A DNA stretch of 64,000 bases from positions 40,088,487 to 40,152,486 of the forward strand of contig NW_026262734.1 of NCBI RefSeq assembly GCF_021869535.1. Reading direction: 5' to 3'. This document shows, in pieces, positions 1,698 to 44,959 of this stretch; the first letter of the stretch is position 1, and each line of letters begins with the position of its first letter. Under the pieces are notes generated by a model, which was given only the letters and a program-made list of their open reading frames with translations, made no database searches and was not told where the DNA came from. A program made the translations under genes and the position numbers. Source of the stretch: Mytilus californianus. Its lineage: Eukaryota.

Positions 1698-2042
1698 TTA
1701 TTCATAGCAATCTTCATCGTCGTCAGTCCGTCTTCCCCTCTTTGCTGGCACCATACCACCAATCAAACCATTAGCTGTATTGAACAGATTAATTGGTGTG
1801 CTACCATCTGTGATTAAGGTTGATTTCAGTCCAAGGGACTGCAACATACGGACCTGTTGGTCTGGTCCAGCGGACGCCATGGTTGCCAAGGTATTTGCTC
1901 CAATTGCATCCACCATATTCTTGAATTTGGTTGTCTCGATAGCTGACATTTCCCTAGATTTGCTTAGTTCCATTTCATCTTGTTCTCTCACATATTTTAG
2001 TTCTGCCTCTCTTGCTTGTGTAAGCCGTTCCAATTCAGATTC
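1698..2042 (-). CDS. MVP: MVP exon 12, terminal ([21 protein letters not shown]...[31 protein letters not shown]...DDDEDCYE*; TAA stop at 1700-1698)
   Basis: Acceptor tattttag|GAATCT. Matches the MVP cap-ring C-terminus [30 protein letters not shown]. The 12 exons sum to 2583 nt (860 aa) with all splice phases consistent. Confidence 0.92.
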
Positions 2043-2417
2043 CTAAAATAAGATTTCATATTGTTGTACTAGCTCTATCTTGAATAATAAAACTTGTCAG
2101 CTTAGTCGAGTTCTATGAGTAGATAGCATGCAATTTTGGTGTAACGTGAAAATTCTAACACCGTAAAGATAATTTCAGATAATAAAAGGACTGTACCAAA
2201 ACAGAACATGGGACATATACAAACTTGGAAACAGTACCATTATTAATTCTATTATATACTGAAATGATTCCAAATACAGTTTGTGTGTGAGCTATTCTTC
2301 ATAACTTCATCAAACGCAAACAGTAAAGCTGTCAAATCTGACTGATTTAAGTTTTGACCTATAAACCACTTATGCCATCAAATACCAGTAAAAGTTTACA
2401 TAAACCCTGCTACTTAC

Positions 2418-2661
2418 TGATTCAATTTTCATTGCCTGTGATTTCAGTTTGGCCTGGTCTACAGCTGCCTCGCCTTCAATCCTGGAAGCTTCAGCTCGAG
2501 ACTGTGCCTCTGCTTTAGCCTGACCAGTACTTTCTACTGCAGCACTGTTTGCCTGTAATTCTAACAATTGTTTCCTGGATTTTTCAGCCTCTGCTTCATC
2601 TGAAATCTTCTGTCTCTCTAATCTTCCTTTAGCTTCTTGTTCTAATCTCTCTGCTTCATGT
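2418..2661 (-). CDS. MVP: MVP exon 11 (cap-helix coiled coil: [82 protein letters not shown])
   Basis: Acceptor catcatag|ACATGA and donor GAATCA|gtaagt. 244 nt. Matches [46 protein letters not shown]. Confidence 0.92.
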
Positions 2662-3439
2662 CTATGATGTGAAAAGCAAACTTTGAGTAATAATGACGAA
2701 TGCAATCTTTATCAATTAACTTATGTCAAAGGAGGTTCTACAATTGTACCCATCAGTCTTAACGGACAGGGGTCATGCTAAAAATGTTCTTTCTGGCATG
2801 GGAAGAGTTTCCATATATAACTATTTTCGTATTAGTTCATTTTGGATGTATGATACATTTCAAGTTTCTCATGAAATGTGATATAATCATTTAAAAGCAC
2901 TCAGACACACAAACAGTCATGCTTAAACTATACATGATCAGTATAAAGAAGTTTTTTTCTATTCTATACAAATCCTTGGTGTACACCAAACGTTACATTA
3001 AAACTAGATCTTCAACTTTTAACGTTTACAGATAAGTTTACTCGGATGATATTGTTTCTATGGATTTTTTTTATCAAATTTGAATGTTCTGCAAACAGTA
3101 TACTCCGACTACTGAAACTTATCATCCACATATTGTTGGTTCACAGCCAATTCTACTTAATATGTCTATGTGTCACTAACGATGTCTATAATAGTAGATA
3201 TTTTGTATATCCTCTAGTAAGTCTACAACGGTTACATTATAATACTTCTGATGACCTAGCAGACATACAATGTCAGTTATCAGACAAATACATTCATTTA
3301 CACATGGCTGGTGCACTTCTGAATCAATTCCGAGGCAACAGTAGTTTACTAGACCTGGAAAATGCCTAGAATTGTACTTTTCGAATATGCCCCAGCTTCT
3401 TGCAAGTTTGTTTGGTCATAAATACCCAAGTTTATAAAT

Positions 3440-3510
3440 TACCTACCTTGTAACAGCTTCCTGTGAGTTTAATGTGCATTCAATGGCTAGCTGTACCGAT
3501 TTCTGTAGAG
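3440..3510. repeat. MVP intron 10 starts with a ~71-bp diverged duplicate of the exon-10 3' end plus donor
   Basis: On the minus strand, 3440-3510 reads CTCTACAGAAATCGGTACAGCTAGCCATTGAATGCACATTAAACTCACAGGAAGCTGTTACAAG|GTAGGT. The real exon end at 3519-3590 reads CTTACAGAAATCTGTACAGCTGGCCATTGAAATCACAACAAACTCACAGGAAGCTACTGCAAG|GTAAGT. Confidence 0.8.
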
Positions 3511-3518
3511 TTACTTAC

Positions 3519-3730
3519 CTTGCAGTAGCTTCCTGTGAGTTTGTTGTGATTTCAATGGCCAGCTGTACAGATTTCTGTAAGGCATCTCTTGTTCTCTGAT
3601 CTACAGGCTCCACCGATTGGATATCAATACTGGTGAATACCAAGTTGTTCTGTGGGAATCTAAACGTTCCTCGAACTTTTCCTTTCTCATCAAAACCAAA
3701 TACTGAAGATCTGATGATTCTTGCAGAATT
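3519..3730 (-). CDS. MVP: MVP exon 10 ([70 protein letters not shown])
   Basis: Acceptor ttttag|AATTCT and donor GCAAG|gtaagt, phase 2. 212 nt. Matches NSARIIRTAVFGFE...[37 protein letters not shown]. Confidence 0.92.
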
Positions 3731-4008
3731 CTAAAATGAAAGAATGTATTTCTTTTAAGCTGACTTTTGATTTTATAGGCTCCTACGTTTCTACAAATTT
3801 ACACATCATGGCTTTCAAAAGTTTGTGTTTGGGCGTTTATGATGTAGGTAAATCCAAAAAAGCGCTTCGAACACACTTAATTGATACAGTCTTACACCCA
3901 TTTAAGAAAATGTTTTAGGTTCCCATCATGAGTGGGTTGGAGTGTGCCCTCATTCAAATATCATTTTCCTAAAAAACCGACCATTTCCTGTACAAAGATA
4001 ATGCTTAC

Positions 4009-4351
4009 CTTATGGAAATCATCAAACTGTACTTGTGCTACGGCCCCTCTGACACGGGAGGCTATAGCCTTGCAGGCATCTCCAATGAAATCTGGTACAC
4101 TGAAAATCTTAGCAGCCTCTGCTTTATCTTCTTTGCTCTCAATTTCAAAGTGCCAGTTGTACGACAGCTGTAAAGACAGTCTTGCATGGTCAGATGTTTC
4201 TACAGTAATGATGTCAGTACTGAAGTCCGGTCCGAGAAACAAACACAGAGATTTAATAACATTGTTTTTCTTTGGTTTGCCACCAGAAAGGCTTAGCTTT
4301 GTGAATTGTTCATCAGGACCCAATAAAACCAATTCGGGACCAAAAACCACT
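4009..4351 (-). CDS. MVP: MVP exon 9 ([69 protein letters not shown]...[32 protein letters not shown])
   Basis: Acceptor cgttacag|AGTGGT and donor CATAAG|gtaagc. 343 nt. Matches the MVP shoulder domain nearly residue for residue ([29 protein letters not shown]). Confidence 0.93.
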
Positions 4352-4674
4352 CTGTAACGAAAGATTAAATTATTGTTTTATAATATAACTTGCATGTCAT
4401 TATCTTGTCCTACATATTGTTAGATACAACGATTAGTCAAACCCTTTCCTGAATTGAGGCTAGGAACAGTCAAATTATAATGACTACTTTTGAGAAAATT
4501 TTAATAATTTTTGTTTTCAGTTTACATCAAAAACATGAACATGTTACATGTTTGAGTATATATGTCTCAATAATATATCACTGTCTTTAAAAATGTACAA
4601 TATTTGATCATTTCTGAACGTAGGTTATAATTGAAAATTCCTTGAGGTATAAATTACAAATGTTATCAGTATAC

Positions 4675-4916
4675 CTAGCTTTCTTTTCTTTATAATCGTA
4701 AATCTGTACAGCAGCATTGTGTGGAACTCGGAACGTGATTACACGTGTTTTGTCTCGTGGTTTTGATGCCTCACTTCCTGGTTTTGGCCCTCTCTCGCCA
4801 AAGGCCTGTGGATTTTTTGCCTCTGCCAGCAGTGTCTCGACTGCAGGAGGAAGTTCCTTGGCCCATAATTCCTCGTCCTGATTTAACATGTAAGTTTCTC
4901 CAGTTACAGCTCTGAC
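4675..4916 (-). CDS. MVP: MVP exon 8 ([30 protein letters not shown]...[25 protein letters not shown])
   Basis: Acceptor ttttag|GTCAGA and donor GCTAG|gtatac, phase 2. 242 nt. Matches [24 protein letters not shown]...[24 protein letters not shown]. Confidence 0.9.
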
Positions 4917-5554
4917 CTAAAAATTGCATTAGTACTTGATATGACAAGGTAATAAATAATAATATATGCTTTAAACAATCAAGGTATCTAAGCTCTGTTT
5001 ATATTCAGTTATTTTTACAGACTAAGGAATGTTGCATTTGATGTCTTAAATCATTACTTTTTCACATTGATGTTCAATATAACTGCATTACCAAATATCA
5101 AACTATCAACTGACTTCTGAAAGAAAGATACACACATTTCAATAGACCACTTTCGAGTTCGTCGCATTGCCATCAAAAACTGGTTTTAGTGAACATCATT
5201 CGTGCGTTATGGGGTGTCGTCACTTCCTTCACATGTTGAGCGAGCGGTTGAAAAAAATATGATTCTATATTGCACGAACCATTCGGCAAATTAATTTCTT
5301 TTAATTGATAATCAGCACTGCTATCGTTAGGGAATTGTGACTAAGTACCTACGGAATAAACATTATTTCTAGTTTATCCTGCACATGTGACGACCACGAA
5401 GACGCTTGATGAACTTTAATAGTGCAGGGATACAGGCGATACCCTGTATCTGGTAAATGACGTCATAAAGGCTCGCATAATTGAAGAACTTTTCCGGTGA
5501 AGGAAATAACTCGAAAGGGGTCGATTTGTTGAACATAAAAACAGTATGACAAAC

Positions 5555-5704
5555 CTTTCCAGTTTTGATACATCTGACATAGATACCCTCATTTTCATCC
5601 AGTGGCAGTGCAGTTCTCTTCATGGTAACCTCTACCTCCACAGGTGGCACGTACTCTGCTGGTCCCCGAATCATCCATTTATCTCCTGGTTTTCGTTCTA
5701 TTTT
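5555..5704 (-). CDS. MVP: MVP exon 7 ([50 protein letters not shown])
   Basis: Acceptor ttttctag|AAAATA and donor GGAAAG|gtttgt. 150 nt. Matches [50 protein letters not shown]. Confidence 0.92.
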
Positions 5705-6147
5705 CTAGAAAAATAAGCCTTAGTCATTAGAAATATATATCCAGTAAAAACAAAATAAACGGAACACAGCAATTATAATTTGCATTAATACCACCTACAA
5801 AAAGAAATAATCGCAAAACTGTTTTTAAACAAATCAATATTTGCATTCAGACATTTATCAGTAATAAATGTGTTCCCAGAATAAGTACTGACAAGGGAGT
5901 AATAGAAGTAATACCATAGGCACTGGCCTTTGAAATTTTAAGCATATGTATACTAGCATTCAGGCATACTTCACGTGATTGCAATAACAGCTTGATGAGA
6001 AATTCTTTTTCACAAGCTTGGGTCATTTTCTCTGTTTACTTAGAATATTTTGTTTAAATGTTTTGGTATAATTACAGACAACCAATCACAAAACGAATGA
6101 ACGAACACGTGACCTAAATATTTAATAGTGTTCAGAGTTAAACTTAC

Positions 6148-6273
6148 AGCATCTTTATCAATGAATGATTCTGTGGCTCTCAGGATAACACCTTCATCTT
6201 CACCAAGTACATACACATTTTGAATTCCTCTCTCAAATCGTTCTCCAGGGAGTAAAAAGAAAGAACATTCACC
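6148..6273 (-). CDS. MVP: MVP exon 6 ([42 protein letters not shown])
   Basis: Acceptor gttttag|GGTGAA and donor GATGCT|gtaagt. 126 nt. Matches [35 protein letters not shown]. Confidence 0.9.
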
Positions 6274-6811
6274 CTAAAACATACAATGTGAAATGAGAAA
6301 AACTATTTACTGAGGAAATTAAGAAAGACACAACTGATTAAAACATTACAGTTAAATGAAAGAACAACCTTCTGCTATCAATTTATTCTCTTTATATTAA
6401 TAAAAATCAAATTTTCCCAGAATGTAACATTTGGATACGAATACAAAGACAATTACTCTTTTGGAGCTTGTAAAAATGAAATGCCCCCCACCCTATCTTA
6501 AGATTTTGTTTGCAAGTGTTGATACATTTCTGTTTTTTTTTCTCCATTGGTGTTTTTTTCTGGATTTTAGCTTGACATTCAAAATAATCATTTCAGTAGA
6601 TGTCAATAAATTAGCTGCTTTTTTTACATCCTACATTACATCAGGGTGCTTTGGCCACGGTTAAAACTACCCCTATTTACATAAACCCGTTTCATCTTGT
6701 CAACTTAGTAATGTCATACTTAATATCATCTAATAGCTCAAAGACATGCCTTTGATTAACCTCGGTAGTACAGTACATTACCTCTGCTAGGTCATGAAAA
6801 AATTAATTTAC

Positions 6812-6922
6812 CTTTACTAATTTCTTTCTACCAAGCTGTAGTCTGCCATGTTCATCGGAAGGATCAAGGATGATACAATATTGTCTAGAGGTTAGTGTGG
6901 TGATGTTCACGACTCCGACAAC
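6812..6922 (-). CDS. MVP: MVP exon 5 (VVGVVNITTLTSRQYCIILDPSDEHGRLQLGRKKLVK)
   Basis: Acceptor ttttcag|GTTGTC and donor GTAAAG|gtaaat. 111 nt. Matches [38 protein letters not shown]. Confidence 0.9.
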
Positions 6923-7430
6923 CTGAAAAATCAACATATAACCGTCATGGTCTTTATGGTTTATCAGAAAACTAGGAAACTTTTCCTCAGCAGTAACAAC
7001 TATTTCTTTTCAGTAGGCGATTAGTTTCAGTTTTCCTAATACATTGGCCTTACTAAACCATCGAGGCACTAGTAACTATGAAGACTCTGGATTAACCCGT
7101 TTTGGACATAGCAGTTTTGACGTATTTGACGGAATAAACCAAAGTGTGAAAAAAAGTTTTGCTTGATTTGTTTGTTCCAGTACACTTTATTGAGTTGTAC
7201 TCAAATCGTTCAAATTTACAAATATTCTAATCTCTATTTGACTCAATTGGTACTTTTCTAGAGCAGTACTTCTTAACCTAGTCTGAACTGTATCTAGGAT
7301 GGATCTCCAAAAACACTCAACCAAAGAGAAGATGTGTTCTCCAAAAAGAGTTTTCCTTCATTAAGCGCAAATAATAATAGTTGGTCATTCCATATTCCAT
7401 TTCATGTTAAACCACTTATTTAAATCCAGT

Positions 7431-7544
7431 ACATACCTCTTCATACACATTAGGTATGTGTGTTTATTATTACACCAGTAAGGAACATACCTCTACATAC
7501 ACATTAGGTATGTGTGTTAATTATTACACCAGTAAGGCACATAC
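7431..7544. repeat. MVP intron 4 starts with two 54-bp tandem copies of [last 22 nt of exon 4 + GTATGT donor + 26 nt of intron]
   Basis: Three units at 7431, 7485 and 7539 read ACATACCTCT(T/A)CATACACATTAGGTATGTGTGTT... The third overlaps the real exon end at 7545. Each intronic copy carries an intact GAG|GTATGT on the minus strand. Confidence 0.85.
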
Positions 7545-7670
7545 CTCTTCATACACATTAGGTATGTGTGTTTCTGTGTCGGTCATTTTGATCAACCATT
7601 CCTCTCCGTTCTTCCTGGTTACACCAAAGTCATCTTTAAATGTTCTCAATGATATCATATGAAGGGCTTT
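7545..7670 (-). CDS. MVP: MVP exon 4 (KALHMISLRTFKDDFGVTRKNGEEWLIKMTDTETHIPNVYEE)
   Basis: Acceptor ttatcttgcag|AAAGCC and donor GAAGAG|gtatgt. 126 nt. Matches the MVP segment [40 protein letters not shown]. Confidence 0.9.
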
Positions 7671-8242
7671 CTGCAAGATAACACCATACATTTTAATGCT
7701 GACTAATGTCTTGTACCTTATTAAAATGGTGATCAATTATGTCAAATTAACTTTAATGAGTAGTAAATTGTTTGTTTCAATTATGTTGCATTTTCGTTCT
7801 GTCTGTTATCTAATATCTTAAGGATACTAGTGTTTGATCTTTTTTTTCCGTCCACAATTTACAATGCAATGTATTTAAAAAATAAATGGGGAATGTGACC
7901 ATGGGACACAGATGATGCCCCCGCTTGTATAATAACGTTATAAAGGGACATAACCCAAGAACGATTAAGAGTTCAAACAATCACATCCTCAAATAAAATT
8001 TTCATTGGTTGAATGCATGGAATGTTATCAATGCGTTATGTAAAAAGTAGTGATAAAATCCGGAAAATTGATAACTATCAAGCTAGCATCATAAGGGTTT
8101 TGACTGCATTAATGCAATCTTACCCCAAGAAAAACCTGAAACACTTACTGACTGATCATAGATCTATTTAGAACTCTTGCTTCACCTTAAAATATCACAC
8201 CTTATTTTTATTGCCACTTCATCTGAATGAAACTATATTTAC

Positions 8243-8593
8243 CTTATCTGTTAAAACATAAGCGTTGACAACATCTACGACTTCTTCATAAGCTCCTGGG
8301 AGGTAAGCTCCAGTCTTCTTTACCAGCCATTCCTCACCAGTTACCCTAGCAACACCTTGTCTGTCAATAGTCTCCTTCCTAGCCCGCAATCTTATGGCCT
8401 GGTTAGGTCTAATGACTGTGGCCCTGACAGTCTCCTCAATAACAGCCTCCTTCCTTGGGATATATGTTCCTGGTCCTTCAAATAGCCACTCATCCCCAGC
8501 TGTTCTCTTTTCCTCATCATCATCTTCAAAGTCAAGAATAGCTCTGAGACGAAGAGCTGAGTTGGCTGCTACCACTTTCAGGGCGGTTACAAC
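8243..8593 (-). CDS. MVP: MVP exon 3 ([24 protein letters not shown]...[17 protein letters not shown]...[34 protein letters not shown])
   Basis: Acceptor tttatag|GTTGTA and donor GATAAG|gtaaat. 351 nt, phase 0 at both ends. Contains the canonical MVP repeat motifs [14 protein letters not shown] and TGEEWLV. Confidence 0.92.
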
Positions 8594-8870
8594 CTATAAA
8601 CAACAAGCAAGAAAATCAAATCAGCTGCTACCAATGTCATTAGGTTATAACGTATAAACAAATAGGGAGAAAATCCAATAAACTGCAATTACTTTCAACG
8701 GTGATACACCTATAAACAACAAAGGAGAAAAATCAAATCAGCTGCTACTTCATTTAGGTAGGCTACAACCAATAAACAACAAGGGGGAAATCAAATCAGT
8801 TACTGCCACTATTTTTTAGAGGAGTTACAACCTACAAACAACAAAGGAGGAAACTTATTGGTGACAACGA
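8594..8870. repeat. MVP intron 2: ~60-bp tandem repeat x5 whose unit begins with a copy of the exon-3 acceptor junction
   Basis: Units at 8585, 8646, 8706, 8765 and 8827 begin ACAACCTATAAACAACAA, the reverse complement of ttgttgtttatag|GTTGT (polypyrimidine tract, AG and first exon bases). Copies at 8706 and 8827 retain AG. Confidence 0.85.
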
Positions 8871-9219
8871 ATGGGTCAGCCGTGGAGGTGATATCATTGA
8901 AAGTCAATGAGAATTCATAATAACTTTCCTTTCTTCATTATGCTAATTGCAAATATTACTAGTATATCATGTAACCAATGAGCTGTAAAGCTTAAGATAT
9001 TAAAGTATATATACTACTTAACCCTGATCAGTAATATGTTACTGAAGATGCCCACAAGAACCATTTTAGGGGAACCCATGCCCAAAAGCTTGAATTAAAA
9101 CATCAAGTATTAAATGTGTATTTTCGACAAGTAATAATTATTCATTTACATTTAGTCTAACCACTATATGCTGTTCATTGCTAGATCAAATCTGGCACAT
9201 GTTATCACTAATATCATAC

Positions 9220-9415
9220 CTGTTTCAGTACTTCTCCAGGATACAAAGGGAAAGGATCCTGTGCCAATCTAATCTCTTGGTCAGCATGTACAAGTTTGGC
9301 CTGTCCACTTTCATCAAAGACAACTTTAGATTCTTTGTCCCTCAGTACCGGGTTTTCTACGATACAATAATGCCTTGGGGGTACAGTGATCATACGCTCT
9401 GGTCCATATACCACT
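9220..9415 (-). CDS. MVP: MVP exon 2 ([23 protein letters not shown]...[16 protein letters not shown])
   Basis: Acceptor tttacag|A and donor CAG|gtatga. Strong similarity to MVP repeat domain 1 ([10 protein letters not shown]...[18 protein letters not shown]). Confidence 0.9.
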
Positions 9416-9773
9416 CTGTAAATATCAATACACATTACATGTAGTATATCCAGCTTATTACGGTATTGACTTTGAAAAATATAACCTGATAAAAATTTAC
9501 TTTAAATTTGCCTGACCTGTCTTACATATGATATGCCGCAAGTCGATCTTGTCAATATTAAGTTTGACCAGTTTCATGGCCGGTAATGTAACATTGAATC
9601 TCATTTCGGCAGTGTACTCTGTCCTTTTGGTGTAATAAAAATCCACGATAACTTTTCCCTAAGGTTGTACTTCTGACGTAATAAACACACTAGTGTGAGG
9701 AAGATATACACTAGGACAATTCATTTACCGGAAATTCTACTCACCGGAATAAATAGGCTATAGTAATACTTAC

Positions 9774-9910
9774 TTTTCATTGTCTTGTCTGACAAATGTC
9801 TGTGGACCAATCTCAAGTCTTGTAACATTGAGATTCTGGTCTAGAACATGGAGGTAAAAATAAGGAGGGATTCTGTATATTGATTCATCTCCCCGCCTTG
9901 AAGTCGACAT
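9774..9910 (-). CDS. MVP: major vault protein exon 1 (start codon at 9910-9908; [46 protein letters not shown]; GTAAGT donor)
   Basis: Translation aligns with MVP N-terminus ([41 protein letters not shown]). The donor is AA|gtaagt, phase 2, and joins in frame to exon 2. Confidence 0.85.
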
Positions 9911-16155: not shown

Positions 16156-19100
16156 ATCGTAGATAATCAGCCGCTAGACACAATGTGAAGCTCACTTCGA
16201 ACTTGTACTTGTAATGAGCAACATGATTGTTGCCACATGTGGAGCAGGTTCTGCTAACCCTTCCACGGAAAAATCGGACTGTCCCTCGTTTTTCGGTGGG
16301 GCTCGAGCAATTACTTTTTTACATAGTGCTTTGGGCTAGCTGTCGTTTGTCTTTTGTTGTTTTATCGTTTAATTTTTTTGCCATGGTTATTGTCAGTTTG
16401 TCTTCAACTTACGAGTTTTTAATATCCTTTTGGTACTTTCAGTTTCATTTTTTTTTGTATCAGTTTCCTTAAAAATCATTACTTTGTTCAATATTATGAT
16501 GATGCCAAAGAAAATCGTTGAAACGTCAAAGTAAGTGGTTAAGCTAGTTAAGAATACGAGGCTGGGATACAAGGCAGTGGTGGGTCCATTGGGGTCTGAT
16601 CCTTACTTATCTCCTCAGATTTGTTTTAAAATTATATGAGAAGTTTAGCTTCGAACTCCCTTTCTTATGTTTTTAAGGCTTTATGATTGGCTGGGGTATT
16701 GAAATATGGACACTGATGGGTTTTGTCCAAATTCAGCAGTAAAACGCACACTAAAGAGGGACGTATATTTTTGTATTTGCGGTATCTTATATAAATGCAA
16801 AGCTAAGTCCGTCGGGTCGGAGAACAATTTGTATGCTACATGCCCTCATTTTTCCCGTGGCAGTTAAAATTGCCACCATTCATTCCAGTAAACCCACTTT
16901 GCAGAACCTACATATTAGATTTAGTCTTAATTTATTCTCGTCTTGATTATAGATGAACTATTTGTAACTGTTTGTTAGGCATCAACAACCTAATAATCAA
17001 TAAGGTTTTACTAAGACACTTCTCGTAAATGGAAGAGGGTTCCCTTCATTTCTGAATTTTTTCAGTTTTTAGGTAATTTTTCTCAATTCTATATGTTTTG
17101 TCACCCTATTATTCTCTATTCTTTATATTTTGGCACCCAATTATTCTCTATTCCAGTTTAATTTTTGTCCAATTTTTCTCTATTCTTTAATTTTTTGTCC
17201 AATTTTTCTCTATTCTTTAATTTTTTGTCCAATTTTTCTCGATTGTTTAATTTTGGGCTCATTTTTCTGTAGATTTGGCCAATTTTTCTCCATTCTGTAA
17301 ACCCCACTAAACCCTCCATCATCATTTTCATGTTTTAAATTGTATAACTCAACTCCTGTGTAATTTGGACAATCTCTGTTAATTACAGATTATTTGTTTT
17401 TATTGCTGTAATTACTCAATATATCCAACCCATTCCTCCAAACCTCCAGAACAGGTTCCTTTAAATTCTGATCTTTTTCTGGGTCAATTTTATATTATCA
17501 GATATACTCTGTTTCTTGTCTGTTTATTTTTTGTTTATATTGGCATTGATGAAGAATGTGAAAGAGAGTCGAAAGATACCCAAGAGACATTCAAACTCAT
17601 AAGTTGAATACAAAACTGACAATGTCACGGCAAAAAACGAATAACAACGAAAAGACAAACAAATGTACACAAAACACAACATAGAAAACTAAAGACTGGA
17701 GCAACACGAACCCCACCAAAAACCGGGGGTCTCAGGTACGCTTTGACCAATGGTGAAAGACTTTATAAATTTACGCAGTTCAACTTGCTGATATAACGGT
17801 TCTAAAGAATGTATAAAAAAAATACCGAACTCCTAGGTTAAAAGGGGGACTTCCATAAAACCTAAGAAAACAAAACGATCGACTATATCAACCAACGGTA
17901 CAAGTTCTATTATTTAAAAAAAAAGAGTGAATTATGGATTACGTAAATCAATCAATACATTCCGTAATCACAGTGGTTTAATTTCGGTAACTTAATAGTT
18001 GATCGTTATGGAATATCTGTTTCACAGATGACGACGGATATGTTTCATCGGTTGTAACCACAACATACACAATCCAGTCCTCTTTTCCTCGAAAGAGACC
18101 TACCGAATTACACTTATCACTGGGTTTGTACTAACATGAGCAACACGACGGGTGCCACATGTGGAGCAGGATCTGCTTACCCTTCCGGAGCACCTGATAT
18201 TTATCAACCAACGGTACAAGTTCAAATATTAAAAAAAAGAGTGAATTATGGATTACGGAAATCATTCAATACAATCGGTAATCACAATGGTTCAATTTCG
18301 GTAACCAAATAGTTGAGCGTTATGGAATATCCGTTTCACAGATGGCGACGGATATGTTTCATCTGTTGTAACCAAAATCCCGTCCTCTTTGCCTCGAATG
18401 TGACCTACCGAATTATACTTATCATCGGGTTTGTACTAACTTGAGCAACACGAAGATCAACTTACCCTTCCGGAGCACCTGAGACCCCGGTTTTTGGTGG
18501 GGTTCGTGTTGCTCAGTCTTTAGTTTTCTATGTTGTGTTTTGTGTACATTTGTTTGTCTTTTCGTTGTTTTTCGTTTTTTGCCATGGCATTGACAGTTTT
18601 GTATTCAACTCATGAGTTTGAATGTCTCTTGGGTATCTTTCGCCTCTCTTTCACATTCTTTATAAATGCCAATATAAACAGAAAACAGACAGACAAGAAA
18701 CAGAGTATATCTGATAATTTAAAATTGACCCAGATAAAGATCAGAATTTAAAAGAACCTGTTCTGGAGGTTTGGAGGAAGGGGTTGGGTATATTAGTTGA
18801 GTAATTACAGCAATAGGAACAAATAATCTGTAATTAACACAGATTGTTCAAATTAAGCAGGAGTTGAGTTATACAATTTTAAACATGAAAACGATGATAG
18901 AGGGTCTAGTGGGGTTTACAGAATAGAGAATAATTCTACCAAAGCCAAATCTACAGAAAAATGAGCCCAAAATTAAACAATCGAGAAAAATTGGACAAAA
19001 AAATAAAGAATAGAGAATAATTGGGTGCCAAAATATAAAGAATAGAGAATAATGGGTAGCCAAAATATAGAGAATTGAGAAAAATGACCTAAATATTTAC

Positions 19101-23879: not shown

Positions 23880-25490
23880 TCTGTGTTGTAGAACGCCCGA
23901 ATACCAAAAACAACACAAACAACGCTGAAAAAATACAACACAAATCACGTTACGATCGAGTTTTGAACCCCCGAATCCCCTAATTACAGGTATATCCTAT
24001 ATATCATAAGAAAGCTAATAAAAGGAGGAACAAAAGTTTTATAGTGAATATAGGGCACAGATCCGGTTTAAGGGGTAATGAAGCGGCCGAATACCGAAAA
24101 CGGCCGAACCTAAGAAAAAATACAACACAAATCACGTTACGATCGAGTTTTGAACCCCCGAATCCCCTAATTACAGGTATATCATAGATCTATCATAAGA
24201 AAGCTAATAAAATGAGGAACAAAAGCTATATAGTGAATATAGGGCACAGATCCGGTTTAAGGGGTAATGAAGCGGCCAAATACCGATAACGGCCGAACCT
24301 AAGAAATATTACAACACAAATCACGTTTAGATCGAGTTTTGAACCCCCGTTTCCCCTAATTACAGGTATATCCTATATATCATAAGAAAAGTAATAAAAT
24401 GAGGAACAAAAGCTTTATAGTGAATATAGGGCACATATCCGGTTTAAGGGGTAATGAAGCGTCCGAATACCGAAAACGGCCGAACCTAAGAAAAAATACA
24501 ACACAAATAACGTTACGATCGAGTTTTGAACACCCGAATCCCCTAATTACAGGTATATCATAGATATATCATAAGAAAGCTAATAAAATGAGGAACAAAA
24601 GCTTTATACACAGCTACTTTTGCATAGGTACTATTTCTGTACCAAAAATCTGTAGTACTGGAAATCTACTTTTAATTTTCAGTACTATTTTGTTACTTTA
24701 AATTTATTGTAATATTTAGGTACCTGTATTTTACAGTACTTGATTTGCACTTGAAATTTAAGTACTACAGATTTTTGGTTACACCGTTACATTTTCAGCA
24801 TTTTGAAAGTTTGTCTATTTCAAATCTCTTTAAGTTATGATTTTCAAACATATGGAATATTGCGATCACTGTTGGTATTATTTCTGTACCAAAATTTTTA
24901 GTCCAATCAAGTACTGTAAAATACGGGTACCTAAATATTACAATAATTTTAAAGTAAAGAAATAGTACTAAATATTAAAAGTAAATTTCCAGTACTTCAG
25001 ATTTTTAGTACATAAATAGTACCTATGCAAAAGTAGCAGTGTAGTGAATATAGGGCACAGATCCGGTTTAAGGGGTAATGAAGCGGCCGAATACCGAAAA
25101 CGGTCGAACTTAAGAAAAAATTCAACACAAATCACGTTACGATCGAGTTTTGAACCCTCGAATTCCCTAATTACAGGTATATCCTATATATCATAAGAAA
25201 GCTAATAAAATGAGGAACAAAAGCTATATAGTGAATATAGGGCACAGATCCGGCTTAAGGGGTAATGAAGCGGCCGAATACCGAAAACGGCCGAACCTAA
25301 GAAAAAATACAACACAAATCACGTTACGATCGAGTATTGAACCCCCGAATCCCCTTATTACAGGTATATCCTATATATCATAAGAAAGCTAATAAAATGA
25401 GGAACAAAAGCTATAATATAGTGAATATAGGGCACAGATCCGGTTTAAGGGATAATGAAGCGCCCGAATACAAAGAACGGCCGAACCTAT
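23880..25490 (+). repeat. ~185-bp satellite array, plus orientation (~6.5 units, interrupted by a MITE at 24609-25041)
   Basis: The unit ...GAATATAGGGCACAGATCCGGTTTAAGGGGTAATGAAGCGGCCGAATACCGAAAACGGCCGAACCTAAGAAAAAATACAACACAAATCACGTTACGATCGAGTTTTGAACCCCCGAATCCCCTAATTACAGGTATATCCTATATATCATAAGAAAGCTAATAAAATGAGGAACAAAAGCTTTATAGT... recurs with ~184-186 bp period. Confidence 0.9.
24609..25041. mobile_element. 433-bp MITE with ~150-bp terminal inverted arms, inserted into a satellite unit, flanked by TA/TA
   Basis: The satellite consensus ...ctttaTAgtgaatat... is split as ctttaTA[cacagctacttttgcatagg...cctatgcaaaagtagcagtg]TAgtgaat. Arms 24611-24760 and 24890-25040 are reverse complements. A TA target duplication is typical of Tc1/mariner-type (Stowaway-like) MITEs. 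Confidence 0.75.
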
Positions 25491-28400
25491 TCACTATATA
25501 GCTTTTACTCCCCATTTAATAAGCTTTCTTATGATATATAGGATATACCTGTAATTAGAGGATTCAAGGGTGCAAAACTCGATCGTAACGTGCTTGTTGA
25601 AGTATTTTTTCTTAGGTTCGGCCGTTTTCGGTATTCAGGCACTCAATTACCCCTTAAACTGGATCTGTGCACTATATTCACTATATAGGTTTTGTTCCCA
25701 ATTCTAAAAGCGTTCTTGGGATATATAGGATATACCTGTAATTATGGAATTCAAGGGTTCAAATCTCAATCGTAACGTGCTTGTTGAAGTATTTTTCTTA
25801 GGTTCGGTCGTTTTCGGTATTCGGGAGCTCCATTACCCCTTAAACTTGATCTGTGCACTATATTCACTATATAGGTTTTGTTCCCCGTTCTACAAGCTTT
25901 TTTAGAATGTATAGGATATACCTGTAATTAGGGGATTCAAGGGTTCAAATCTCGATCGTAACGTGCTTGTTGAAGTATTTTTTCTTAGGTTTGGCCGTTT
26001 TCGGTACTCGGGCGCTCCATTACCCCTTAAACTGGATCTGTGCACAATATTCACTATATAGGTTTTGTTCCCCATTCTATAAGCTTTCTTAGGATATATA
26101 GGATATACTTGAAATTAGGGTATTTAAGGGTTCAAATCTCGATCGTAACGTGCTTGTTGAAGTATTTTTTTCTTAGGTTCGGTCGTTTTTGTTATTCGGG
26201 CGCTCCATTACCCCTTAAACTGGATCTGTGCACTATATTCACTATATAGGTTTTGTTTCCCATTCTTTAAGCTTTCTTAGGATATATAGGATATACCTGT
26301 AATTAGGGGATTCAAGGGTTCAAATCTCGACCGTAACGTGCTTATTGAAGTATTTTTTCTTAGGTTCGGCCGTTTTCAGTATTCGGGCGCTCCATTACCC
26401 CTTAACATGGATCTGTGCACTATATTCACTATAAAGGTTTTGTTCCCCATTCTACAATCTTTCTTAGGATATATAGGACATACCTGTATTTAGGGGATTC
26501 AAGGGTTCAAATCTCGATCATAACGTGCTTGTTGAAGTATTTTTTCTTAGGTTCGGCCGTTTTCGGTATTCGGGCGCTCCATTACCCCTTAAACTGGATC
26601 TGTCCACTATATTCAGTTTAAAGGTTTTGTTTCCTGTTCTATAAGCTTTCTTAGGATATATAGGATATACCTGTAATTAGGGTATTCAAGGGTTCAAATC
26701 TCGATCTTTGTTAGGCCTATCCCTTTTATCTACAATTAATTATTTTTTTACGTAAAATTCCACTTGATCGTGCATCTCAAATCCACTTATGGATATCTAG
26801 AAGCTTACGGTACAATTGTCGCACTTAGTTTGTTACATATATTTCTAGGGGGTGGGGTCCACTTTTATTCATAAAGCATTAAAGTGAGCATTCGTTTCCG
26901 GCATCATTTCTCTATCGGGATGTCCACACTAATTGAAATCCGCCGACTAAACGGTACACCTTGTGTCAGGGGAGGGCAAAAGACTTATTATGTCTCTAAG
27001 TGCCAATAATTCTTTTCAAAATCTCACTTTCCAATTAAAAATACTCACATATTTACACATTTATATATAAAAAACATAGAAAAATATGAAAAGGCTATAA
27101 GAGGTAATATACACAAGTAATGAAAGTTTCGTATAAAACTATGGGTGTTTTCCTCAAGAAAAATCTAATAATAGCACTAACAAATAAGATATCTGTGTTG
27201 TAGAACGCCCGAATACCAAAAACAACACAAACAACGCTGAAAAAATACAACACAAATCACGTTACGATCGAGTTTTTAACCCCCGAATCCCCTAATTACA
27301 GGTATATCCTATATATCATAAGAAAGCTAATAAAATGAGGAACAAAAGCTTTATAGTGAATATAAGCTTTCTTAGGATATATAGGATATACCTGTAATTA
27401 GGGTATTCAAGGGTTCAAATCTCGATCTTAACGTGCTTGTTGAAGTATTTTTTTCTTAGGTTCGGTCGTTTTCAGTATTCGGGCGCTCCATTACCCCTTA
27501 AACTGGATCTGTGCACTATATTCACTATATAGGTTTTGTTTCCCATTCTATTATCTTTCTTTGGATTTATAGGATATACCTGTAATTGGGGAATTCAAGG
27601 ATTCAAATCGCGATCGTAACGTGCTTGTTGAAGTATTTTTTCTTAATAGGTTCGGCCGTTTTCGGTATTCGGGCGCTCCATTACCCCTGAAACTGGACCT
27701 GTGCACTATATTTACTAATAAGGTTTTAATCCGCACTCTATACGCTTTCTTATGATATATAGGATATACCTGTAATTGGGGGATTCAAGGGTTCAAATCG
27801 AGATCGTAACGTGCTTGTTGAAGTATTTTTTCTTAATAGGCTCGGCCGTTTTCGGTATTCGGGCGCTCCATTTCCCCTTAAACTGGATCTGTGCACTATA
27901 TTCACTATATAGGTTTTGTTCCCCATTCTATAATCTTTCTTAGGATATATGGGATACCTGTAATTAGGGGATTCAAGGGTTCAAATCTCGATCGTTACGT
28001 GCTTGTTGAAGTATTTTTTCTTAGGTTCGGCCGTTTTCGGTACTCGGGCGCTCCATTGATTACCCCTTAAAATGGATCTGTGCACTATATTCAGTATATA
28101 GGTTTTGTTTCCCGTTCTGTAAGCTTTCCTAGGATATATAGGATATACTTGTAATTAGGGTATTTAAGGGTTCAAATCTCGATTGTAACGTGCTTGTTGA
28201 AGTATTTTTTTCTTAGGTTCGGTCGTTTTCAGTATTCGGGCGCTCCATTACCCCTTAAACTGGATCTGTGCACTATATTCACTATAAAGGTTTTGTTCCC
28301 CATTCTATTATCTTTCTCTGGATATATAGGATATAACTGTTATTGGGGGATTCTAGGGTTCAAATCTCGATCGTAACGTGCTTGTTGAAGTATTTTTTCT

Positions 28401-28620
28401 TAGGTTCGGTCGTTTTCGGTATTCGGGCGCTCCATTACCCCTTAAACTGGATCTGTGCACTATATTCACTATATTGGTTTTGTTCCCCATTCTATAAGCT
28501 TTCTTAGGATATATAGGATATACCTGTAATTAGGGGATTCAAGGGTTCAAATTGCGATCGTAACGTGCTTGTTGAAGTATTTTTTCTTAATAGGTTCGGC
28601 CGTTTTCGGTATCCGGGCGC
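25490..28620 (-). repeat. Same ~185-bp satellite in minus orientation (~13 units), interrupted by an inverted segment at 26708-27364
   Basis: Reverse-complement units (GGATCTGTGCACTATATTCACTATATAGG...) with 184-186 bp spacing. The head-to-head junction with the plus array is at ~25489/25490 (ccgaaccta|ttcactatatag). Confidence 0.9.
26708..27364 (+). repeat. Inverted (plus-orientation) copy of ~500 bp of leader plus one satellite unit, embedded in the minus array
   Basis: 26708-27364 is a near-identical direct copy of 23396-24050 (tttgttaggcctatccc ... ctttatagtgaatata). The junctions show short microhomology (tata). Confidence 0.85.
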
Positions 28621-29539
28621 TCCATAACACAGATTTTCTATATGTTAGTGCTTTTTTTAGATTTTTCTTGAGGAAAACACCCCTCGTATTTTATGCGAAA
28701 CTTTCATTACTAGTGAATATTACTTCTTATAGCCTTTTCATATTTTTCTATGTTTTTTTTTATGTTTAAATGTGTAAATATGTGAGTATTTTTAATTGGA
28801 AAATGAGATTTAGAAAAGAATTATTAATATTTGCACTTTGAAAAATAATATGTTTTTTGCCCTCCCCTGACACAATGTGTACCGTTTAGCCGGCGGATTT
28901 CATTTAGTGTGGACATCCCGATATATGAGTGCTGGAAGAAACGAATGCTAACAAGTATCCTATCTCTTTATACCTTAATACTAGATAAAACTAGGCCTCA
29001 ACGTTTCAAGCTGATAGAATTTTAATCGAATTCTAAAAATTATTACACAAAACTTACCAACTTAAATAAACTTATTCTAAAAGGTTACCAATTCAACATT
29101 GTCATTAGATCTTTGAATATTTTTTTTATTGGTATTACTATTGATTTTGTTATCAGTAAATTAAAAGTAAACTAAATATTATTCTTATATACATATACAT
29201 TTTCATGGATCTCCAATCTGTCGATTCCGGTATCTTGGCATTGCACACGGTCATGTTTTTCTCTTACTGTTTATGACGTCTTTACACTAAATCCATGTTG
29301 GATGTGTACTGATTGAAAGTCAGTTTAGTTTTAAATGCATGATTTTTTTATTAGTTGTTATTGGCTTTAAACTAGCTGCCAGTAACTTGCGAGTACTCTC
29401 AGATCTGTACTTAGTGTCATTTTGTTGTTGGGATGTACAAATACCCGGCAACGTTCACTCTATGTTTTTGTTAAATGTATTTCTATGTTTATCCATCTCA
29501 TGAGTTAAGCCTTTTACAACTGATTTTTATAGTTCGTTC

Positions 29540-35375: not shown

Positions 35376-37030
35376 AGTAACTTCCCTCTTGGAACACCGG
35401 TTCTTGGAATACAACTTTAAAAAGAGTAACTCGAATAATTCAGCGCCCTCTATCCACTACTGTTTTTGAAGGCAATGGAGTGATCGTAGTGATCGGAATA
35501 TAACGACTGGATTATTCGGGATAAAAAAGAGTGGACCACAGTGTCTCCATTATTACTTTAAAGCGTCATTTCGGTTTAAATTTTATAAAACTATCTTGTG
35601 AAAATTTCGGCAAAATTTGAATTTGGTATTTTCCCTATAAAAACAAAGATGTTATAATGTCATCATTTATTTCAACTACTAACTGAAATTGATTCCTTTT
35701 TTGTCCACCGCGCAACGCATTGCGTGGGACATAGAAATACCGGGCGTCCGTACGTCCTGTCTTGTTAGCGCCATAACGTGTACAATTCTTGTCCGATTTT
35801 TTTGACAATTATATCATAGGTTTATATCAGCAATGTATTGCACAAGTTCGAAAATCAGTGCCGATCATTTATTTTTAAAAGAGTTATGCCCTTGGAAACA
35901 TTAATTGTATGGAAAATTGCATCGTTAGCGCTCTCATTTGTACAATTCTTGCCAGATTTTTATGAAACTTATATCATAGGTTTATATGAGCAATGTCTCG
36001 AACGAGTTTGCAAATCAGTGCCGATCAATTATTCTTAAAAGAGTTATGCCCTTTGGAAACATTAATTATATGGAAAATTGCTTCGTTAGAGCTCTCATTT
36101 GTACAATTCTTGCTAGAATTTTATGAAACTTATATCATAGGTTTATATTAGCAATGTCTTTGACAAGTCCGAAAATCAGTGACGATCAATAATTTCTAAA
36201 AGAGTTATGCCCCTTGGAAATAGTAATTATTTGGAAAATTGCCTTATGAGCTCTCTAACGGTGAACAATTCTTGCCAGATTTTTATGAAATTTATATTTT
36301 AGGTTTATATCATCAATGTCTTTGACGAGTTCAAAAATCAGTGCCGAACAATTAATTTTAAAAGAGTTAGGCCCTTGGAAATAATGATTATATGGAAAAT
36401 TACATTGTCAGCGTTCTCATGTGTACAATTATTGCAAGAATTTTATGAAACTCATATCATAGGTTTATATCAGAAAGTAACTTCCCTCTTGGAACAAAAC
36501 TTTAAAACGAGTAACTCGAATAATTCAGCGACATCTATCCACTACTGTTTCTGGAGATAATGGAGTAATCGTAGTGATCGGAATTTAATGACTGGATTAT
36601 TCGGGTTAATAAAAAAGTGGACCACAGTGTCTCCATTATTACTTTAAAGCGTCATTTGGGAGTAATTTTATAAAACTATTTTGTGAAAATTTCGGCAAAA
36701 TTTGAGTTTGGTATTTTCCCTATAAAAACAAAGATGTTTTAATGTCATCAGTTATTTCAACCACTAACTGAAATTAATTCCTTTTTTGTCCCCCGCGCAA
36801 CGCGTTGCGGGGACATAGAAATACCGGGCGTCCGTCCGGACTTGTTAGCGCTCTCATTTGTACAATTCTTGCCAGATTTTTATGAAACTTATATCATAGG
36901 TTTATATGAGTAATGTCTTGGACGAGTTCGAAAATCAGTGCCGATCAATTATTTTTAAAAGAGTTATGGCCCTTGGAAACATTAATTATATGGAAAATTG
37001 TATCGTTAGCGTTTCTTTTAAAAAAAACTC
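35376..37030. repeat. Composite repeat: [~420-bp leader + ~160-bp tandem array x5] followed by [second leader copy (36473-36845) + 1.3 array units]
   Basis: Leader copies 35376-35795 and 36473-36845 are ~90% identical. Array units are spaced 160-170 bp apart (the ATATCATAGGTTTATAT landmark sits at 35811, 35971, 36132, 36294 and 36464). Each leader ends in a hairpin-forming palindrome, GTCCCCCGCGCAACGCGTTGCGGGGAC at ~36788. Confidence 0.85.
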
Positions 37031-37710: not shown

Positions 37711-38760
37711 CAGTGATTTTAAACGTGCAGAAAGACATACTCATTTGATTATTGTGACAGATGATGTAGTCTATTTTTTAAATTTTCAGTTTTGTATACA
37801 GCTTTCATTACTTTGTATAAATGAAATTTGTATACAGATGTCATTACTTAAATCGATTAATCAGAAAGCGTTCATGTATTCATTCACTTACTCATAACAA
37901 TATTGTATTTCAACGCTCTAACATTTTGATTGTCTCCGAGAACAGGTAATGCAATTATATATTCTTTTGAACATTTTTTCTGTTTTTGAAATTAGAAAAT
38001 GTAAAGTGTACATATACTTCGAACGCACCGATTATTCTTATTCTGTGTTTGCAAAGGCGGGATGCCTTTTTAACATAATTTTTTCAAATACAGTGATTTT
38101 TAACGTGTAGAAAGACATACTCATTTTTGTAACAGATAATAGTCTTTTTTTTCAATGTTCAATTTTGTATACAGCTGTCATTACTTAAATCGATTAATCA
38201 GCAAGCGTTCATGTATTCATTTACTTGCTCATAACAATACTGTATTTCAACGCTCTAACATTTTGATTGTCTCCGAGAACAGGTAATGCAATTATATATT
38301 CTTTTGAACATTTTTTCTGTTTTTGAAATTAGAAAATGTAAAGTGTACATATATTTCGAACGCACCGATTATTCTTATTTTGTGTTTGCAAAGGCGGATG
38401 CCTTTTCAACATAATTTTTTCAAGTACAGTGATTTTAAACGTGTAGAAAGACATGCTCATTTTTGTAACAGATGATGTAGTTTTTTTTCTTTCAATGTTC
38501 AGTTTTGCATACAGCTGTCATTACCTAAATCGATTAGTCAGCAATTGTTCATGTATTCATTTACTTGATCATAACAATATTGTCTTTGAACGCTCTAACA
38601 TGTTGATTGTCTCCGAGAACAGGTAATGCAATTATATGTTCTTTCGAACATTTTTTTTCAAATTAGAAAATTTAAAGTGTACATATCCTTCGAATGCACC
38701 GATCATTATTATTCTGTGTTTGCAAAGGCGGGATGCCTTCTTAACATAATGTTTTTTGTC
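37711..38760. repeat. Tandem array, 3 units of ~336-380 bp, preceded by leader 37541-37710; a solo leader+unit copy lies at 19997-20400
   Basis: Unit start CAGTGATTTTAAACGTG(C/T)AGAAAGACAT at 37711, 38091 and 38427. The leader GTTACATGCCTTCATCAATAAACTGAC... is shared by 19997 and 37547. Confidence 0.85.
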
Positions 38761-43705: not shown

Positions 43706-44305
43706 CCGATTGTGGAGGGAAGGCTGATATAATATTTGCTATTCCTGGGAACAATGAAATTCCTGGAGAAGAATTCTTTCCGTTTGAAAGATTCTTAACA
43801 ATGCTTGTAGATTATTTTAAAATCGACAGAGACAATGTAAATATTGGTCTTATATTATATGGAAGAGAACCCGTGGCAATCAGTTGGCCGCAACCAATGA
43901 AAGACCAAACACAAACCAATACGAGAGTAAGCCTACTTGCGGAAAGAGAATTATACAATGGTAAACTTAAAGGCAGAGCAGATGTAAAGGGGGCACTTAA
44001 TTTAATGAGACAAATGTTCAGAAATCCATCAGGTTATCATCATCTGCAGTTATCTCGACCTGATACCAAACAGATTGGAGTGATGTTCACGCATGGTTCA
44101 GTTCAGACAAATATCAGTCAAGATGTGATCACAGCTGCAAACCAGTTTAAGGAAGCAGGGATCGAAATGTATTCAGTAGGAAACATGCCAAATGGTGAAT
44201 GGTATTCAGAGATAGCCTCTCATAAATGTAAAATTTTATCCGTGGAAAGTTACTCTGAGGGTTTAAAAGGCCTACTTCCTTATATAGGGAGCAGTATATG
44301 TACAG
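43706..44305 (+). CDS. Exon 2: von Willebrand factor type A domain (ADCGGKADIIFAIPGNNEIPGEEFFPFERFLTMLVDYFKIDRDNVNIGLILYGREPVAIS...VMFTHGSVQTNISQDVITAANQFKEAGIEMYSVGNMPNGEWYSEIAS...)
   Basis: Uninterrupted 200-codon reading frame bounded by acceptor tatttgtag| and donor G|gttagt. It has the VWA hallmark layout: a beta-strand entering the DxSxS position, an LYG segment, a TDG-like segment and a final amphipathic helix. Confidence 0.85.
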
Positions 44306-44959
44306 GTTAGTTTTATATATATACCCATATAACAACAATCAACATACTTTTCGTACTATAATCTTTAAAGCCTAATTCAAGCATCTGATACAACTCCCTT
44401 TTGTTTTTTGCTATGAATTAGTATCTTAATCTTTTTTCGTTCATCATCGGAACTTTCCATCCGATTGGTTCATTGTGTTTGATGTTTTTCTTTTAATCCA
44501 CATAGTTCCTGATAATTTATATGCAGCAAATTCATAAACAAAAACTAAATTTCAAAATAAATACACCTTGAAGTCTATTATGTATGTAATTCCCTTGTTT
44601 TACTTGAAATGACATGCTTCATACCAAACAACGAAAATACGACACAAAGTAGAACAACGGTCTTCAAAATAATACATGTATATATGAACTAACGAGTGAA
44701 CAACGCAAAGCCTACCAAAAGCCGGTGTGATCTCATTTTATCCGAAAGTGTATGCAGATTTTGCTCCACATTTGACAACCGTTGTTTTTGCTCATAGTAA
44801 AATGAATATAAAACATACAATTGTTTCATATAAAAATCTGTACATAGGAAAATTCCCCCCTTTAAATCAGACTGAAAAAAAGGTGAATTGCATATATACT
44901 TGATTCCAATTGATACATTTTTCTTTATTCCATTTACTGATGCATTATTGTCCTTTCAG

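Follow-up and report, generated by a model that had tools for sequence, protein, structure and literature searches.

Within the 64,000-nucleotide stretch of Mytilus californianus DNA analysed here (the window; contig NW_026262734.1, positions 40,088,487 to 40,152,486) the minus strand carries a gene of the major vault protein (MVP), in which three splice junctions are reiterated by short tandem arrays, and it is these arrays that we describe. The hand-built model of the gene consists of 12 exons, every intron obeys the GT-AG rule, and the product of 860 aa matches the annotated "major vault protein-like [Mytilus californianus]" XP_052073495 with 100% identity over 100% of its length and contains the Pfam domains Vault, Vault_2/3/4 and MVP_shoulder. 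This is the M. californianus major vault protein gene, paralog "A", and the original prediction, made from the letters of the window alone, was right both in the MVP identity and in the exon/intron numbering. Tandem Repeats Finder (TRF) registered exactly three tandem arrays within the gene, each of them lying across a splice junction: 72 bp x2.0 (85%) at 3439-3579, 54 bp x2.6 (94%) at 7431-7573 and 58 bp x3.7 (69%) at 8585-8799. All three are head-to-tail and built of at least two units of minisatellite size, the terminal unit holding the authentic site, while the exonic portion of the repeat amounts to 29, 29 and 61-64 nt for the acceptor array (intron 2/exon 3) and the donor arrays of exon 4 and exon 10, respectively. 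Realignment confirmed that exon boundary sequence is included in the repeats.

The gene was compared with the "A" orthologs of M. coruscus, M. trossulus, M. galloprovincialis and M. edulis and with paralog "B" of M. trossulus, M. edulis and M. coruscus, which makes a total of eight Mytilus MVP loci; loci L001 and L002 were assigned to paralog B by protein cluster membership. The MVP loci of the scallop Argopecten irradians (L008) and of Lingula anatina (L009) were taken from outside the genus.

The array at the end of intron 2 is formed by four intronic units of 58-59 nt (u4 to u1, the last being nearest to the exon) and one authentic terminal unit, in agreement with the five repeats of ~60 bp bearing a copy of the exon-3 acceptor that had been expected there. 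Each unit combines ~30 nt of intron, with a CTGAT motif that matches the branch-site consensus, a polypyrimidine tract and the AG position, and ~29 nt resembling the start of exon 3, GTTGTAACC...GGTAGCAGC. The AG of the decoy acceptor is kept in two of the four intronic units (u2 and u4); u1 has AC and u3 has TG at this place. The same array was found in all five A orthologs, with approximately 4 intronic units in M. californianus, 4 in M. coruscus, 39 in M. trossulus, 8 in M. galloprovincialis and 7 in M. edulis, and in paralog B of M. coruscus (~3 intronic units), while paralog B of M. trossulus and M. edulis has at most one unit. Across species and paralogs the intronic copy number ranges from about 0.5 to 39, and the exon-adjacent units u1 and u2 are positional orthologs between species. 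The extreme number is due to intron 2 of M. trossulus A (L003:3239-5268), where a distal block of ~35 tandem 58-bp copies occupies 2 kb and is homogeneous (89% matches); TG replaces AG in 34 of the 39 intronic units of this species. Either only the splice-dead variant was free to expand or the TG block may reflect a founder effect. No copy of the 58-bp unit was detected outside MVP intron 2/exon 3, neither in the window nor in seven other loci, which means that the unit is local, and a dispersed repeat or transposon was rejected as its source.

At the border of exon 10 and intron 10 the exonic unit E is followed by copy I1, a 72-nt sequence of 64 exon-like and 8 intron nucleotides, 83% identical to the exon unit, which ends in a decoy donor AAG/GTAGGT (here and below the slash marks the splice junction) as compared with AAG/GTAAGT of the real one. 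If the decoy were used, translation would meet an immediate in-frame TAA and give a product of 665 aa. The intronic copy of the exon-10 end with its donor, for which a unit of 71 bp had been given, is thus present and diverged, with a unit of 72 bp. Farther downstream lies I2, a remnant of an older third unit, which is supported by local alignment tested against shuffled sequences (M. californianus, p=0.003; M. coruscus, <0.0005). I1 is found in all five A orthologs with the common derived GAATGCACATT, its identity to the exon unit varying from 83 to 65%. A GT is present at the decoy position in all five; in M. trossulus (AAT/GTAGGT) and M. edulis (AAT/GTAGTT) the exonic context of this donor is degraded. 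Paralog B of M. trossulus and M. edulis retains a decayed 72-bp relic (54-57% identity, p<=0.0005 versus shuffles), and paralog B of M. coruscus has two fresh 72-bp copies in the same register, whose identity to the exon unit of that locus is 96% and 90%. In this last locus (exon 10/intron 10, L007:15648-15866) three identical consecutive donors CAAG/GTAGGTAAC stand 72 nt apart, and each later donor, if used, would bring an immediate in-frame TAG.

The unit of the exon-4 array includes ~28 exon nt, the donor GAG/GTATGT and ~20 intron nt. Two extra copies are present, and in both the 9-mer of the decoy donor is identical to the real one. Read-through to the decoys would yield ...EE-VCALLV-TAA, with a product of 276 aa for either of them, so that both the two additional 54-bp donor copies and the in-frame TAA upon decoy use, foreseen in the original prediction, are borne out. 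No 54-bp array was found in the A orthologs of M. coruscus, M. trossulus, M. galloprovincialis and M. edulis, and past the third donor the M. californianus sequence resumes the ancestral A-type intron. Since the four sister orthologs lack the array and the A-type intron continues behind it, the array is lineage-specific, being confined to M. californianus among the orthologs examined. The intronic half of the extra units (7437-7544), GCCTTACTGGTGTAATAATTAACACA, resembles the start of intron 4 in paralog B more closely than the A-type intron behind the third donor: alignment scores are 16-17 for paralog B of M. coruscus and M. trossulus, 12 for that of M. edulis and 8.5-9 for the A-type intron. 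The 54-bp array may have been formed on paralog B, or copied from it, by template switching or conversion.

The occurrence of the intron-4 array in this single assembly also raises the question whether the repeats were spuriously expanded or collapsed in the course of M. californianus genome assembly. However, the intron-4 copies differ mutually at 3 of 54 positions and have indels relative to the ancestral intron, unlike stutter, and assemblies made independently for five species all show the acceptor and exon-10 arrays, which are present in two paralogs. For these two arrays the possibility of an artefact, admitted initially, is not supported, and as an explanation for the whole set it is extremely improbable.

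Table 1. Position of the MVP gene, its exons, junction arrays and decoy splice sites in the window, and of the dispersed element in other MVP loci
Feature	Coordinates	Strand	Basis or details
MVP gene, paralog "A"	1698..9910	(-)	12-exon model, 860-aa open reading frame, Pfam, XP_052073495
MVP exons 1-4	9910-9774, 9415-9220, 8593-8243, 7670-7545	(-)	hand-built model
MVP exons 5-8	6922-6812, 6273-6148, 5704-5555, 4916-4675	(-)	hand-built model
MVP exons 9-12	4351-4009, 3730-3519, 2661-2418, 2042-1698	(-)	hand-built model
58-59-bp acceptor-anchored minisatellite	8565..8861	(-)	TRF, gene model, unit alignment
Intronic units of the acceptor array	u4 8861-8799, u3 8798-8741, u2 8740-8682, u1 8681-8623	(-)	
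Authentic acceptor unit	8623-8565	(-)	30 nt of intron 2 + initial 29 nt of exon 3
Intact decoy AG of u4 (-238)	8832..8833	(-)	use would add 238 nt, stop after 122 aa
Intact decoy AG of u2 (-116)	8710..8711	(-)	use would add 116 nt, stop after 115 aa
54-bp donor-anchored array	7431..7573	(-)	TRF, gene model
Exon-4 end	7573-7545	(-)	
Authentic exon-4 donor GT	7544-7543	(-)	
Intron-4 decoy GTs	7490-7489, 7436-7435	(-)	
72-bp donor-anchored array	3439..3582	(-)	TRF, gene model, alignment
Unit E	3582-3511	(-)	final 64 nt of exon 10 + GTAAGTAA
Copy I1	3510-3439	(-)	decoy AAG/GTAGGT, GT at 3446-3445
I2, remnant of older third unit	3394..3412	(-)	AACAAACTTGCAAGAAGCT matches the exon's AACAAACTCACAGGAAGCT
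Dispersed-element sites	L003:12890-14035, L005:5026-8964, L006:4927-9725, L001:12656-14255, L007:6673-8410		

Judging by these comparisons, the three arrays are separate events of different ages, as was assumed when they were called independent duplications: the exon-4 array is restricted to M. californianus, and the other two occur in all Mytilus orthologs examined. The acceptor and exon-10 arrays are old, being common to the five A orthologs and to paralog B. When A and B introns were compared by BLAST, the junction arrays turned out to be the only substantial alignable sequence, everything else being limited to a 17-nt match at the intron-1 acceptor, and the unit boundaries of the acceptor and exon-10 arrays are identical in both paralogs. 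Each non-junction array detected by TRF was confined to a single locus, while these two are found throughout the genus and in both paralogs; thus it is persistence that sets junction arrays apart. Probably they stay recognisable and can be re-seeded because one of their units is held constant by selection on the protein. No junction arrays were found in the MVP genes of scallop or Lingula. The exon breaks at aa 111, 594, 665 and 746 of the Lingula protein correspond to Mytilus introns 2, 9, 10 and 11, and since introns at aa 111 and 665 are already there, the repeats did not create them; the Rogers-type intron gain by duplication was therefore rejected.

Based on these data one can assume that the arrays most probably represent junction-spanning minisatellites of the "mirage" type. 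A segment lying across the splice junction would have been tandemly duplicated, probably by slippage or unequal exchange between short direct homologies. The slippage proposed in the original prediction is plausible, given the AACA microhomology between exon and intron at the boundary of the 54-bp unit and the microhomology pair CYTTAC and CTCTAC, 72 nt apart, conserved at exon 10. The exon-adjacent unit would then remain the real junction, and the other units would become intronic, bearing copies of exon ends and, at first, splice signals. Their subsequent fate would be ordinary minisatellite behaviour, and expansion, contraction and decay are indeed seen when the species are compared. The spliceosome would keep to the exon-adjacent authentic site, which is the most upstream donor or the most downstream acceptor, and the arrays would be tolerated since this site is still chosen, as suggested by the annotation and by the precedents of human F7 and amphioxus. 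The constancy of the exon unit, maintained by selection on MVP, probably lets the arrays persist and re-expand even after the intron has been randomised.

Three junction-templated duplications in one gene initially seemed unusual and suggestive of a hotspot, so that junctions of this gene, or of Mytilus genes in general, might be prone to recurrent tandem duplication, the causes proposed being hairpins formed locally, breaks coupled to transcription or splicing, or conserved pairs of microhomologies. A random duplication of 54-72 bp that is not wholly exonic would span one of the 22 junctions with a probability of 0.20-0.26, which gives a nominal p = 0.011 (post hoc) for three arrays out of three. 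This value and the recurrence of the 72-bp register in paralog B weigh against chance origin, as either of them could reflect junction-biased mutation rather than chance and survivorship. The prevalence of TG in 34 of 39 M. trossulus acceptor units, which also counts against the "mirage" reading proposed above, hints that intact decoys are not entirely neutral. A bias is also in line with the identity of unit boundaries in paralogs A and B, which are otherwise unalignable in their introns, with the microhomologies at exon 10 and at the intron-4 boundary, and with the existence of amphioxus genes for which several mirages are reported (PMC3087553, PMC3902484). As to hairpins, a 9-bp stem with a minimum free energy of -15.6 kcal/mol (segment 7540-7580, minus strand) can be formed by the exon-4 donor GAG/GUAUGUG and ACACAUACC, which lies in the exon 15 nt before it; the exon part is conserved in all Mytilus loci compared. 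As a driver of duplication, however, this hairpin was rejected, because its stability does not reach significance (z = -1.7; folds as good were given by 14 of 200 shuffles). When the eight Mytilus loci were pooled, with arrays of the dispersed element described below (periods 161, 135, 261 and 35 bp) excluded from the null count, ~3 junction-spanning origins stood against ~6-8 local non-junction arrays. The junction-spanning share of ~27-33% does not significantly exceed the expected ~22%, so that neither the "unusual" character of the set nor the hotspot is supported at this level. Identical boundaries fit equally well one old origin followed by homogenisation from the conserved exon unit, and old junction arrays are easier to detect because one of their units is frozen by selection. 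With all this taken together, a hotspot specific to junctions seems unlikely, and minisatellites that happened to include a junction remain the preferred reading.

If used, every intact decoy would introduce a premature stop, and since all such stops precede the last exon junction by a long distance, the resulting transcripts would presumably be removed by nonsense-mediated decay (NMD). The original prediction suggested intact or near-intact decoys 54-240 nt from the real sites and, as one of the options, regulated alternative or unproductive splicing. Reiterated splice sites are indeed found at distances of 54-238 nt, though the AG is kept in only half of the acceptor decoys, and their use would be unproductive, while the assumption of regulation is not supported. 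For regulation one would have to suppose that decoys are kept as "poison" sites tuning MVP output via NMD, which fits the position of the stops, the perfect 9-mers of the intron-4 decoys, the GT at the intron-10 decoy position of all A orthologs and the old age of two arrays. However, divergence of the intron-10 copy keeps pace with that of neutral intron sequence. Between M. californianus and M. trossulus identity is 79.2% in I1 and 79.0% in the rest of the intron, 56% of control windows being at least as conserved, and between M. californianus and M. coruscus it is 97.2% versus 93.7% for the intron, which is inside the control-window spread. The search for conserved poison sites was therefore negative both for I1, not conserved above the neutral intron rate, and for the variable decoy AG. 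In intron 2 divergence is slightly higher within the acceptor array than outside it (92.5% versus 96.3% identity), and decoy AG/GT dinucleotides are not conserved between species. The exonic context of the intron-10 decoy is degraded in two species, at least half of the acceptor units no longer have their decoy AG, and copy number varies between about 1 and about 40. The four sister species have no intron-4 array, and MVP genes of scallop and Lingula do without junction arrays. Pseudo-sites of this kind are silent in the human F7 model (PMC1557585).

Isoforms point in the same direction. No annotated isoform uses a decoy, and the RefSeq protein corresponds to the authentic-site model. Paralog-B isoforms of M. 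californianus (858, 862 and 876 aa) were considered as possible products of a 54-nt decoy (+18 aa) and rejected, because the alignment places their difference at the exon 6/7 boundary, that is, at intron 6. The short cluster members P0128-P0130 were likewise discarded as decoy products: they are exon-plus-intron read-through open reading frames from other assemblies and thus uninformative. Short-distance tandem sites of the NAGNAG kind do not match the decoys either, as these are 54-238 nt away and all introduce stops. Neutral divergence, unconserved dinucleotides, variable copy number and isoforms differing elsewhere leave no evidence for regulated decoy use, and regulated unproductive splicing appears very unlikely; nothing in the sequences compared speaks for a function of the copies.

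The first paper on amphioxus mirages is reportedly that of Canestro et al. (2002, NAR 30:2871). In amphioxus they are described in Adh3, the globins BflGb6/BflGb9, troponin C and PGBD5, at both 5' and 3' boundaries, with normal splicing, unstable length and concerted evolution (PMC3087553, PMC3902484). The mussel arrays resemble them in having tandem units across intron/exon boundaries on both acceptor and donor sides, in unit size of tens of bp (10-72 bp in Adh3), in the retention of AG/GT by many but not all units and in unstable copy number. Normal splicing, known for amphioxus mirages, may hold in mussels as well, the annotated protein following the authentic-site model. Interior units of amphioxus mirages evolve in concert and boundary units diverge; for comparison, the mussel units u1 and u2 near the exon are positional orthologs between species, the distal TG block of M. 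trossulus is homogeneous (89%) and M. coruscus B has fresh copies (96% and 90%). Unlike amphioxus, the host here is a mollusc, while that literature treats the phenomenon as possibly cephalochordate-specific, and two of the mussel arrays were traced over five species and an old paralog, a depth not shown there.

Human genes provide the other close analogy. The 37-bp variable number tandem repeat (VNTR) of F7 IVS7 has its first unit across the boundary and only the most upstream donor is used, and further junction-spanning minisatellites are known in IFI6 (6-16), CBS IVS13, LMNB2 and PDGF intron 4 (PMC1557585). As in F7, the authentic donors of mussel exons 4 and 10 precede pseudo-donors, and the annotated product requires the most upstream one. 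The human VNTRs described there are usually longer (5-25 units), polymorphic, all donor-side and tested for splicing, whereas the mussel donor arrays have one or two extra donors and are characterised by sequence and annotation. In human genes of segmental duplications, recent paralogs differ in the ~30-bp repeats (~4 copies) located at their exon-intron boundaries (PMC2812944); they alter gene structure, giving novel introns or alternative transcripts, whereas the annotated coding sequence of mussel MVP is unchanged. Reiteration of splice signals by tandem duplication is also a feature of the Rogers model of AGGT duplication (PMC3265369, PMC4974935, PMC2891723), but the mussel introns pre-exist, only one side is duplicated and there is no new intron or shifted boundary.

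Several other properties of the MVP loci were registered in the course of the comparison. Mytilus has at least two MVP paralogs, which in M. trossulus are arranged tail-to-tail ~10 kb apart (L001/L003, CM071709.1, 33.608-33.653 Mb). Nucleotide identity between A and B is mosaic: exons 2-4 and 11 are ortholog-like (93-97%), exons 5-10 and 12 are 77-90% identical and introns are unalignable, which suggests exon-limited gene conversion or unusual synonymous constraint. The paralog-B isoforms (P0132, P0138 and P0137; columns 351-368 of alignment A1) differ at the exon 6/7 boundary: one form includes a micro-exon of 4 aa (TDEK or PDEK), which M. californianus, M. galloprovincialis and M. coruscus have conserved, and another, in M. 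californianus, an 18-aa (54-nt) alternative. A dispersed element with internal satellites (~161, 135, 261 and 35 bp) is inserted in MVP introns that differ by species and paralog; it accounts for most differences in MVP intron length, and neither the M. californianus gene nor the rest of the window contains it. The scallop gene lacks counterparts of Mytilus introns 6, 8 and 10, while Lingula shares with Mytilus the intron positions at aa 46, 111, 399/400, ~480, 594, 665 and 746; the introns are therefore ancestral and were lost in scallop. Scallop intron 3 contains a CT-rich 17-bp x24 array that is not junction-spanning.

Outside the MVP gene the window contains large blocks of a 187-190-bp satellite (23927-28625), the consensus of which flips to its reverse complement near 25488 (inverted arrangement), with ATATGAAAA micro-repeats flanking it at 23753 and 27065. 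Two arrays of 30-32-bp units, 17075-17254 and 18967-19085, are ~1.7 kb apart and their consensus sequences are apparently reverse complements (AATTTTTCTCTATTCTTT... versus ...AAAGAATAGAGAAAAATT), so that the pair may represent terminal inverted repeats of an element. The arrays at 35764-36473 (161 bp x4.4) and 37827-38756 (337 bp x2.8) showed no match to the dispersed element of MVP introns. On the plus strand, open reading frames at 43801-44310 (169 aa) and 46072-46452 (126 aa, cysteine-rich) suggest another gene, and no tandem array of the junction type was found near them.

Thus, the phenomenon itself is not new, having been described and given a name in other animals (PMC3087553, PMC1557585), mainly in amphioxus and in a few human genes, and what we know of MVP and of splicing regulation is unchanged by our observations. 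In the literature searched, no report of junction-spanning minisatellites in molluscs was found, and the added value consists in a mollusc example, in three arrays within one gene on both donor and acceptor sides and in the evidence of their long persistence. For practical purposes this is useful in annotation, as gene predictors can be misled by perfect splice sites that are reiterated, and the arrays offer a natural test bed for the choice among identical tandem splice sites. For the biology of introns the comparison of five species and two paralogs means that such arrays, though evolving neutrally, can remain recognisable when nothing else in the intron is. Tentatively, and with more doubt than trust, one may go further and suppose that exon-anchored minisatellites are self-renewing, the exon unit serving as a master copy that re-seeds the array by conversion or slippage. 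This would explain why junction arrays with identical boundaries are the only intron sequence alignable between A and B, as well as the appearance of fresh copies in M. coruscus B where its relatives hold only a decayed relic. If so, cryptic sites that must be silenced by selection would constantly be supplied by them, as in the expanded AG-to-TG units of M. trossulus, and, if self-renewal is general, "mirages" would be not a cephalochordate oddity but a widespread metazoan class of long-lived junction repeats.

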